A stretch of 64,000 nt of DNA from Candidatus Poribacteria bacterium (GTDB lineage Bacteria > Poribacteria > WGA-4E > WGA-3G): the NCBI GenBank assembly GCA_963665235.2, contig CAXXLX010000001.1, positions 1,792,001-1,856,000 on the forward strand. The letters run 5' to 3'. Position numbers and translations under genes: made by a program. Below, piece by piece: positions 32,755 to 34,292 of this stretch. How positions within the stretch are numbered: position 1 is the first letter of the stretch; the number at the start of each line of letters is the position of its first letter. The notes beneath the pieces were generated by a model. That model searched no databases. It was not told the DNA's origin and saw only the letters and a list, made by a program, of their open reading frames with translations.

Positions 32755-33186
32755 CTATTCAACGGGTTCCGTTTGCGGGTTTTTGAGCAATTCTACAATT
32801 CCGTAAAGACCGCCTATAACTAGGAAAATGCCAATCCCGGCTACACCTCGCCGCACCCAAACAGGATGCAGGATTTGTGAGACACCGAGCAATGAAAGCG
32901 GTTGTAGCAGCTTAGATACGCCGATATTGACATAAAACGCGCCGTAAGCGATTAGGCACAATTCACTGAGAAACCGCTGTTTGAAAGGGTTTACGGGCAT
33001 GCCAAATAGGTTAATCAGGTAATCCCCAGAGAGAATGAGGGTTACCCCAATGACAACAAAGGTGAAAGGGACAGCAATTAGCTGTGTGGATTTCCAAAGC
33101 ATGACAGCTAGGAGTACACTGACAGCCCCTAAGATAAGACTAATTACGCCTTGAAAGATTTGAAGTGCTCTGCTTTTTTCTATCAT
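32755..33186 (-). CDS. Small membrane protein (about 4 TM helices)
   Basis: Hydrophobic segments; TAATG coupling to the upstream gene. Confidence 0.7.
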   Translation of the reverse strand: MIEKSRALQIFQGVISLILGAVSVLLAVMLWKSTQLIAVPFTFVVIGVTLILSGDYLINLFGMPVNPFKQRFLSELCLIAYGAFYVNIGVSKLLQPLSLLGVSQILHPVWVRRGVAGIGIFLVIGGLYGIVELLKNPQTEPVE

Positions 33187-34292
33187 TAGAATGAATATAT
33201 CGCTGTTAGGGAAATTAATGGCCCGAATTCAAAAGCGTCCCTTTCTTCATACCGACCCTCTAAAAAGGCATCGGTGTTATCGTAGAGCATCTCCTGTTGC
33301 AAAGGCAACATAACCGTAATGGCTATTGGGAGGCTGTAAGGGGTTGCAATAACCGTTCCAAGTGATGCCATGCTGTAACGGAGTCCGGTATTGAAGTCAA
33401 GTTCACCATCCCAATAAGCATAGTGTTGATAAAATCCGAGGTAGCTCGCTTGAAATAAAAACCATTTGTTGAGGCGATAATTCAACCCGGCTGTGTAGGT
33501 GATTTCCCTAGAGCCTCGGTAGGTTTTGCTATTCTCATAGAACGGTAATTTCGTTCGGATGCTCATATTCGCGCCCAATCCGTTGTAGAGGGGCAGGCTA
33601 TAATGCAGGTCAGCGATAGGGTTGAAAGTGCCTGTCCCAAATTGGATATGGAGATGTTTAAGCCCCGCATCGCCTAATTTCCAGGGGTCTTCCTCCGTTT
33701 TTCCTGTGGGAATTGTGGTGCCGATGCGGCCTAACAAAAAATCACTCTTCCTGAAAATTCCGTGTAAATGATGTCCTATCAATACATCCAAATCGGTGGG
33801 GCCGGTGTAGGTTTCACTCCGATGATGATTATGGCGATTGCGGAGGATAGCTTGCCACTGTTCATCTGTGACCGCTTCAATCTTCTCAATAGTCGCCTCC
33901 TGCGCTTTAACTTCGTAAGGGATGTTCAATTCAAGCACAAAACGGGGGCCGAAGTAGTATTTTAATCCTAAGTCCACGCGATAGATGTTCAACGTCACGT
34001 GATGCCGATGGAGTGGGACAGTTTTCACGGTCGGTTTTCCATTTCCATCTAGGAAAATGCCTTTTGTTTCAAGGTGTCCGCCTTGTGCGTCGAACCATCG
34101 CATGGTACTGAAAGCGATCTGAAATTTTTTTGCTTCTGAAGCCAAACTGGATTCACCTATCCCGCCTCGTGGGATTGCGGGATTGCTTCACCCACCTCAA
34201 CCTTCTTGGGCAAATACACCGCTGTGTAAAATGCCGAATGTAAGCAAAATAAGTTGTAAGACAAGTATTGCGTAGAAGTTTCGGATTTTCAT
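33186..34292 (-). CDS. Secreted/outer-membrane beta-barrel-like protein, candidate selenoprotein with U32-G-G-U35
   Basis: ATG at 34292 is in frame with the listed ORF; signal peptide ...GVFA|QEG; TGA at 34197-34199 and 34188-34190; PTG and QFGTG motifs; terminal YSF. Confidence 0.7.

Follow-up and report, generated by a model that had tools for sequence, protein, structure and literature searches.

A conserved pair of in-frame UGA codons marks a candidate di-selenocysteine outer-membrane barrel family in Poribacteria

The stretch of Candidatus Poribacteria DNA analysed here (the window; 64,000 nucleotides (nt), GenBank assembly GCA_963665235.2, contig CAXXLX010000001.1, positions 1,792,001–1,856,000 of the forward strand) carries on its minus strand, at positions 33186–34292, a gene that appears to encode the precursor of an exported barrel selenoprotein. 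Translated with TGA read as selenocysteine (Sec, U), the gene has 368 codons, two of which are TGA, and a TAA stop. Its ATG (34292–34290) opens a signal peptide of 28 residues (34209–34292) that is typical in kind, ends in GVFA before Q-E-G and has a like architecture in relatives; the N-terminal frame reads MKIRNFYAILVLQLILLTFGILHSGVFA and then QEG-TGA-GG-TGA-SNPAIPRGG. The first TGA is codon 32 (34197–34199) and the second is codon 35 (34188–34190), after which the frame continues without a further stop into a 319-amino-acid (aa) open reading frame (ORF) called with translation table 11 (33186–34145) and ends in TAIYSF-TAA. The mature protein (33189–34208) has 340 residues; according to the alignment and model described below, a flexible U-G-G-U arm precedes a barrel that has about 12 long strands and seven His that are invariant in the family. 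An initial annotation of this DNA had claimed a signal peptide in frame through two TGAs into the 319-aa ORF, His-rich segments (LHRHH and NRHNHH), a C-terminal YSF, and a hairpin, AUCCCGC-11 nt-GCGGGAU, 4 nt past the second TGA. The first three are present in the translation with TGA as U, and the hairpin was found at 34183–34159.

A word-indexed search of databases with the protein found 515 relatives. The 120 database homologs listed are all 291–327 aa long and cover 83–89% of the read-through protein, with the N-terminus absent, a pattern that is expected because gene callers stop at TGA; the few that are named are Candidatus Poribacteria. Six-frame searches that read through stops were then run on 176 genomes of the phylum and matched the family in 140 of them (taxonomic families f1, 111/111; f2, 11/11; f3, 10/29; f4, 7/7), with relatives aligning over residues 1–368 of the read-through protein and two TGAs inside the match. 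Every match among those listed (113 further matches were found) contains an in-frame TGA: six have one, a single match has three, and all others have two. For f2–f4 (28/28 genomes), two TGAs occur in 24 of the 29 near-full-length matches and one in the other five, at 37–51% identity.

Frames were read in 72 loci, 60 from the genome searches and 12 additional paralogs. The leader, an AQ[ED]S stretch, and the motif are present in 71 of these, which span four families of the window's own order at 37–72% identity and have leader and barrel in frame; among the 60 loci L012–L071, a hydrophobic leader and then AQ[ED]S precede the motif in 59. The motif is UGAU in 59 of the 71 loci, UGGU in one (the window), and C[PGAS]AU in 11, and the spacing is always x-x. 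Thus, the second position is TGA in 71/71 loci, and the first is TGA in 60 and a Cys codon (TGC or TGT) in 11. A second copy of the family in the window's own genome, 60% identical, has UGAU. The alignment of homologs that the initial annotation had proposed as a check on codons 32 and 35 hence gave conserved TGA within the order and, as described later, Cys at both positions outside it. The claim that a TGA pair at CxxC spacing is not a matter of chance is borne out by this comparison with relatives and not by the window alone.

The same data bear on whether the gene is simply broken, or is two genes, with nonsense mutations separating a short leader ORF from the annotated 305–319-aa protein. 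Gene callers predict exactly such a split, and two of the loci look damaged. One (L030, G119:C5) has a third in-frame TGA at a conserved Trp (MMRUFDAQ vs MMRWFDAQ), for which a sequencing error, a recent nonsense mutation, or read-through is possible; the other (L068, G039:C56) is the locus without leader and motif, a match in three pieces over several frames that is probably a decayed copy. Decay of the family as a whole would, however, have to produce an identical, identically spaced pair of TGAs in over 140 genomes, at identities as low as 37%, while the rest of the frame stays free of stops and leader, motif, and SNPxIP stretch remain in frame. Moreover, the Cys forms are continuous genes, and a barrel without a signal peptide could not be exported. 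We consider the chance that the gene is broken to be close to nil.

The initial annotation had also named selA, selB, selC, and selD as the genes to look for, and all four are in the genome. SelA gave 520 bits, and SelB lies immediately upstream of a tRNA-Sec gene that scores 78.1 bits (Rfam cut-off 47) and is called by ARAGORN as tRNA-SeC with anticodon TCA. The tRNA gene follows the SelB match on the same strand at a distance of some 77 nt (G000:C1:2395025-2395331). SelD (359 bits, cut-off 125; G000:C1:3841015-3841941) has an in-frame TGA of its own, placed at the canonical Sec site (K-C-A-G-U-A-S-K), and a hairpin resembling a Sec insertion sequence (SECIS), AGCUCC-GGG-GGAGCU, that starts exactly 11 nt past the UGA and provides a reference for the SECIS style of this organism. 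TGA also stands in the metal motif G-M-T-U-G-[GS]-C of three of the four HMA-domain matches in the genome. Two neighbouring lipoprotein-like genes have this motif in a C-terminal HMA domain (G000:C1:2948995-2949168 and 2949488-2949658) and have in common a downstream hairpin, GUGCA-GGA-UGCAC; they are likely to encode Sec-containing MerP/CopZ-like proteins.

An alternative genetic code, with TGA as Trp or Gly, was considered and rejected: TGA closes nine of the 39 long frames in the window and is therefore an ordinary stop of the standard code, and the SelD TGA sits at the canonical Sec site. Together, the conserved TGA pair and the machinery indicate that the barrel gene is very probably a genuine Sec-decoding gene, in which both UGAs would be recoded by the genome's SelB/tRNA-Sec system. 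Cleavage of the signal peptide would then leave an N-terminus with two selenocysteines in a U-x-x-U arrangement.

One or both UGAs could instead be decoded as Cys by tRNA-ReC, a tRNA-Sec-like Cys tRNA, or be passed by near-cognate read-through. Genes resembling tRNA-ReC are enriched in genomes with UXXU hydrogenases, where either UGA may be read as Cys according to PMC13582414, and the barrel family would have to decode two UGAs that are only 9 nt apart. In the window's genome, which is 92.6% complete, only one tRNA-Sec-like gene exceeds the Rfam cut-off; the best sub-threshold matches, which were checked, lie at ordinary Leu, Ser, and other tRNAs and give no sign of a Cys-charging look-alike. 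Also, UGA is kept at the second position in 71/71 loci while Cys codons occur freely at the first (11 loci), which argues that UGA gives something that Cys does not. Decoding other than by Sec is, in our view, very unlikely.

Downstream of the two UGAs lie two hairpins, both on the minus strand. Hairpin 1 (34159–34183; AUCCCGC, 11-nt loop, GCGGGAU) starts 13 nt after the first UGA and 4 nt after the second, and hairpin 2 (34138–34154; GAAUCCA/GUU/UGGCUUC) has a short stem and a triloop that begins with G. The hairpin that had been noticed after the second UGA is thus present, but it is one of two conserved elements rather than the sole one. The 76 nt around hairpin 1 fold with −28.3 kcal/mol, compared with −19.2 ± 2.9 kcal/mol for shuffled sequences (z = −3.1; 2 of 200 shuffles as stable). 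Sliding 30-nt folds were computed at 330 steps per gene for 59 Sec-form genes and, in the same way, for 21 distinct Cys-form genes. In the Sec-form genes, the overall mean was −3.65 kcal/mol (standard deviation (SD) 1.45), and the two places with the most stable folds, counted from the first TGA, were +12 to +21 (mean −11.4 kcal/mol) and +33 to +45 (−8.4 kcal/mol). At these places the Cys-form genes gave −4.1 to −5.5 and −2.1 to −3.1 kcal/mol, respectively, with an overall mean of −2.83 (SD 1.17), and nothing comparable stood out. Hence, both hairpins go with the UGAs and not with the protein family. The 21 genes replace an earlier control with two Cys-form loci, which was ambiguous in that it contained one stable local hairpin.

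Across the family, hairpin 1 starts 12–13 nt after the first UGA and 3–4 nt after the second. Its positions are paired at 82.5% over 58 distinct sequences; the first Pro codon ends in C or U in 57 of these, a base that pairs with an invariant G, and the third base of the second Pro codon sits in the loop and is variable. Distant clades have a hairpin at the same place despite a different sequence, register, and peptide (RVETGE, QMGTDR). Compensatory changes are seen in both hairpins, and both are kept in genes that encode a different peptide there. Hairpin 2 is paired at 94.2%, with changes on both sides in three of its seven pairs, including a closing pair that goes from A-U to G-C in 17 sequences; in the second paralog, a C-G pair has become U-A. 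Its stem has 7–8 base pairs in 59 of 70 distinct sequences. In 68 of 70, the first or second base of its apical loop (GUU in 53) is G, as described for SECIS apical loops (PMC13582414). It resembles the recoding hairpins of the SelD gene and of the HMA genes in the same genome. RNAalifold on the 59-sequence alignment gave no useful consensus (four pairs, no covariation); because clades use different registers, pairs were counted on named structures, and single sequences were folded. A search of the region against Rfam returned only a chance match to DsrA (E 6).

Contigs from sequencing runs also touch this region. Parts of the gene are covered by contigs from three metatranscriptome runs of one study, and one contig of 258 nt spans both TGAs and part of the leader; gene parts left uncovered by RNA-run contigs carry no meaning, and the base differences given here are among those listed (12 further ones were found). 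Short, high-depth contigs from RNA and DNA runs match only the 33-nt stretch 34133–34165, with three differences. This stretch corresponds to the 3′ arm of hairpin 1 plus hairpin 2, and the matches fit conservation at the nucleotide level among paralogs and related strains in the same samples.

Recoding would be steered by the RNA in the roughly 65 nt that follow, that is, by the GC-rich hairpin after the second UGA and then by the short hairpin with the G-first triloop. Three models may account for this arrangement. Hairpin 2 may be the SelB site, with hairpin 1 as a compact spacer that brings both UGAs closer to it, or each UGA may have one hairpin of its own. In the third model, hairpin 1 alone serves both UGAs and hairpin 2 has another role: once the ribosome has advanced 9 nt, the 3′ arm of hairpin 1 could re-pair with a second 5′ arm (AAUCCC and AAUUCC, 8 nt apart) to rebuild a hairpin 11 nt past the second UGA. 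This alternative pairing can form in 90.5% of cells, and its outer pair occurs as five pair types; its 11-nt spacing matches that found for the SelD SECIS in the same genome, and a single downstream SECIS has likewise been proposed for both UGAs of UXXU hydrogenases (PMC13582414). The two 5′ arms are, however, Asn-Pro and Ile-Pro codons, so that conservation of the peptide could yield the repeat, and the loops of hairpin 1 and its alternative have no conserved G. Hairpin 2, in turn, is under selection at the RNA level, is specific to the Sec forms, and looks like the other SECIS loops of the genome. We regard service by hairpin 1 alone as rather unlikely.

As for the protein, the read-through sequence matches no Pfam family at E values up to 1, and neither it nor ten Cys-form relatives match an NCBIfam family, apart from the fused HMA domain of one relative (P0138). 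Across 36 members there are weak, sub-threshold touches to barrel families, namely OMP_b-brl (12 members) and Phenol_MetA_deg (PF13557; seven members, best E 1.5e-3, cut-off not reached). AlphaFold2 run on the 36-sequence alignment gave a model with a predicted local distance difference test score (pLDDT) of 80.7 and a predicted template modeling score (pTM) of 0.77, consisting of about 12 long strands and two short helices, with the N-terminal segment outside the barrel wall. The best Foldseek matches were the FapF channel (PDB 5O65/5O67; E 8e-12, template modeling (TM) score 0.56–0.74) and the COG4313/Phenol_MetA_deg channel (PDB 4RL8; E 3.3e-10, TMq 0.55, TMt 0.69), both of which have the same barrel of about 12 strands (TM 0.55–0.74 over the two); FadL and TodX came next. 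Sequence identity to FapF and COG4313 is 11–15%, and these channels lack the CxxC/UxxU arm, the His cluster, and any selenium or metal-gene context.

The seven invariant His of the alignment are H45, H67, H69, H128, H129, H185, and H187 (in GGH, HRH, IHHR, and HLHIQFGTGT), and further invariant loop motifs are present. Judging from strand order and the usual topology of such barrels, most of the invariant motifs would lie in loops that face outward or fold into the lumen, and the arm would start on the periplasmic side. The model and its FapF and COG4313 matches agree with the exported β-barrel proposed initially, and the protein is very probably an outer-membrane barrel.

A profile built from 36 mature proteins was searched against 1.84 billion representatives and found 482 proteins at E ≤ 1e-3, 368 of them at E ≤ 1e-10. 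Representatives whose alignment begins at the start of the profile are full-length proteins in which a signal peptide is followed by Cys at both Sec positions. Six full-length Cys-form proteins have Q[AG]-C-P-A-C-S-N-P, and seven more distant ones have A-C-x-x-C-[QTGSR]-N-P. A metagenome scan was made with a narrower Cys-form alignment, the broad alignment being too diverse, and the CPAC form is now represented by two Bacteroidota/Flavobacteriales metagenome-assembled genomes (MAGs) and 24 metagenome loci; upstream sequence is shorter than 600 nt in five of the 24, and, with several near-duplicates merged, 21 distinct genes remain. All Cys forms are single continuous genes. The intermediate, CPAU, occurs as a paralog in one Poribacteria genus. 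The series CPAC, CPAU, UGAU suggests that the second Cys was replaced first, and U-x-x-U is best explained as the selenium version of an ancestral C-P-A-C motif.

Some distant entries found in these searches have unusual gene calls. Two public entries (P0166 and P0167) translate in-frame TGAs as Trp (WGAW and CSLW), with gene calls made under a code in which TGA is Trp. Four distant barrel relatives (P0217, P0222, P0223, and P0241) have no N-terminal Cys arm in the called protein and have a C-terminal thioredoxin; several of them start abruptly, and their true N-termini could hold upstream TGAs.

The genes around the Cys forms point to metals. In the Bacteroidota MAG, one strand carries, in this order, merTP (288 bits, cut-off 180), a gene for an HMA protein, merA (501 bits, cut-off 454), an HMA-thioredoxin fusion, and the CPAC barrel; the Flavobacteriales MAG has HMA, then HMA-thioredoxin, then the barrel. 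Directly ahead of the barrel gene, 23 of the 24 metagenome loci have the end of an HMA-thioredoxin gene, and the 24th has a MerTP-like gene in that place; within 4 kb of the barrel there is a MerTP-like gene in seven loci and a MerA-like gene in two (one of them at 85% over 495 aa). In one representative the barrel is joined to an HMA domain (43 bits, cut-off 24.8), and in four it is fused to thioredoxin through His/Asp-rich linkers. Based on the HMA, HMA-thioredoxin, and mer context and on these fusions, we infer a function in soft-metal handling, which is a somewhat better than even bet; Hg(II) specifically is a plausible candidate at rather less than even odds. The metal or redox role initially suggested for UxxU is hence supported indirectly, through the context of the Cys forms.

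In this proposal, the flexible diselenol arm and the cluster of seven His would bind a soft metal ion, most likely Hg(II) and possibly Cu(I), Zn, or Cd, and the protein would hand the metal over, either through the outer membrane or at it, to exported partners that bind metals. With the arm as an additional ligand pair, the Cys-pair relay of MerP, MerT, and MerA would extend to the outer membrane. In the window's genome, the two Sec HMA lipoproteins could be the partners, but this is speculation.

A di-Sec barrel might also do redox chemistry in place of metal transfer, as an outer-membrane or periplasmic oxidoreductase whose targets might include sulfur or selenium species, peroxides, or the disulfides of substrates on their way through the channel. 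In favour of this, UxxU and CxxC are well-known redox motifs, PMC13188914 states that a redox role is presumed for most of the selenoproteins predicted in prokaryotes, and the genomes with Sec forms have no mer genes. The thioredoxin domains can be read either way: the constant partner of the Cys form contains one and four distant relatives are fused to one, but in the partner it is always fused to HMA, one relative is fused to HMA alone, and the thioredoxin fusions have His/Asp-rich linkers. With merTP and merA in the same clusters and seven invariant His in the barrel, we regard a purely redox role as unlikely, though deserving of some weight.

The neighbours of the Sec forms are of other kinds. 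Among 60 loci, they include an aldo-keto reductase (30 loci), the small membrane ORF described next (seven), a CDF cation-efflux protein (five), a BlaI/BlaR pair (three), and a TonB-dependent receptor (three). The small membrane ORF lies directly downstream of the barrel gene in the window (32755–33186, minus strand; 143 aa); its ATG overlaps the barrel-gene TAA by one base (TAATG), and it has a weak match to DUF981 (25 bits, below the cut-off of 29). The coupling of the two genes that had been proposed initially is not a feature of the family: we rejected the ORF as a family partner, and it is a lineage-specific neighbour. The CDF gene is the same neighbour in its five loci, all of one genus. 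At one of these (G055:C1:6235489-6239058), a CAAU copy and a UGAU copy of the barrel gene (L042 and L070) lie about 2.5 kb apart on the same strand, with the CDF gene directly upstream of the UGAU copy.

Taken as a whole, the data are best explained by an exported di-Sec (U-x-x-U) outer-membrane barrel, of a family conserved among sponge-symbiont Poribacteria, with an inferred soft-metal function, a reading to which we assign a probability of roughly 0.85. Several observations weigh against it. With respect to context, no conserved operon was found within 1.5 kb of the Sec forms, whose neighbours are genus-specific, and therefore the mercury link rests on the Cys forms only. The window's genome is unlike mer systems in that its best MerA match (382 bits) is below the cut-off of 454, and it has neither a MerT match nor an HMA-thioredoxin ortholog; placement in a mer cluster was found for Cys forms (L089 and L097) and not for the window's gene, whose neighbours are unrelated. 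With respect to the RNA, G is at loop position 1 or 2 of hairpin 1 in only 30 of 70 sequences and absent from these positions in 40, and the loop of hairpin 2 starts 33–46 nt past the second UGA, farther than in SelD (17 nt) or the HMA genes (about 23 nt), so that neither hairpin alone is a textbook SECIS. The usual SECIS spacing is 11 nt and the range is 16–37 nt. The window's copy of hairpin 2 also has one U·C mismatch in its stem; contigs of the sequencing runs show, as a variant at 34151, the G found here in other members of the family. The libraries behind the RNA-run contigs may hold DNA, so these contigs show neither transcription nor translation. In the protein model, the N-terminal arm (residues 1–24) is placed with low confidence (pLDDT under 50). 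Finally, SelA is found in 164 of the 176 genomes, and its co-occurrence with the family does not discriminate; seven of the 140 family-bearing genomes have no SelA match, and all seven are drafts of 140–730 contigs.

A more specific version of the di-Sec barrel reading can be offered only tentatively, with the odds against its holding in every part. The family would be the missing outer-membrane part of a mercury or soft-metal relay, a dedicated channel in which the metal runs from the His cluster to the Cys-pair arm and on to exported HMA proteins. In Poribacteria, the arm would have been upgraded to a diselenol, a change after which the thioredoxin partner may no longer have been needed, and the UGAs would be decoded by a bipartite signal, in which a collapsible spacer hairpin is followed by a SelB-binding hairpin with a G triloop. 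Such a signal, one SECIS reaching both codons, would be of a kind not described before.

The family was compared with known selenoproteins using the 119 prokaryotic families tabulated in PMC13188914 (2026). Its table lists UxxU in a Prx-like family, an HMA-type metal-binding protein (NF041115), and an FmdB-family protein, and outer-membrane barrels among the MtrB/PioB-type (NF041027) and TonB-dependent receptor (NF049945) families; none of the 119 families corresponds to the barrel family described here. Literature on UxxU, Poribacteria, and outer-membrane or mercury selenoproteins gave no description of the family, within a coverage that extended to articles and not to the supplementary tables of large screens. 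Given the lack of Pfam and NCBIfam matches and the absence from the 119-family table, the barrel family is therefore a new, previously unannotated selenoprotein family, although it may be listed in such supplementary tables.

Of the known families, NF041115 (HMA fold, of the N-terminal type of the 'putative mercuric reductase') has, like the barrel family, two Sec in UxxU. In the MerT/CopZ-type heavy-metal selenoproteins (NF045683), Sec occurs in the Cys-pair motifs of proteins that handle mercury and copper. The idea shared by all three is Sec in place of Cys in a soft-metal ligand pair; NF041115 and NF045683 are, however, small HMA or inner-membrane proteins, whereas the barrel protein has no HMA domain. 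Precedents for Sec in exported outer-membrane barrels are GSU2204/MtrB-PioB (NF041027) and the FCYXU-type TonB-dependent receptor (NF049945), which are unrelated to the barrel family, have one Sec each, and share no NCBIfam match with it. The UXXU-type Group 4 [NiFeSe] hydrogenases described in PMC13582414 likewise contain a pair of UGAs, spaced three codons apart within a metal-ligand CxxC, with CXXU intermediates, and raise the same question of how one downstream RNA serves both UGAs. They are cytoplasmic enzyme subunits with one predicted SECIS, whereas the barrel family is exported and has two conserved hairpins. With the mer relay (MerP, MerT/MerTP, MerA), the Cys-form barrels have in common their presence in the same clusters as merTP and merA and a Cys pair on a flexible or exposed segment. 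In the passages checked of two mer reviews (PMC8261052 and PMC3466566), mercury diffuses across the outer wall and no outer-membrane protein is named.

These results add a selenoprotein family that is widely conserved, at one to four matches in each of the 140 Poribacteria genomes, and that public annotation truncates in every member. An exported outer-membrane protein with two Sec is also a rarity. With the clear series CPAC, CPAU, UGAU, one can ask what advantage selenium has over sulfur at a site for metal binding or redox chemistry. Two features worth following are the pair of Sec-specific hairpins, a concrete system for how bacterial SelB handles UGAs three codons apart, and the mer-cluster context of the Cys forms. 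There, the Cys-form barrel and the HMA-thioredoxin protein form a constant two-gene module, which makes testable the old assumption that Hg(II) simply diffuses across the outer membrane.

A further observation concerns another gene of the window's genome. A frame of about 540 aa (G000:C1:2847216-2847395) combines a CxxCH heme motif and WD40-like repeats with a C-terminal HMA domain that has G-M-T-U-G-G-C, an unusual architecture for a selenoprotein.

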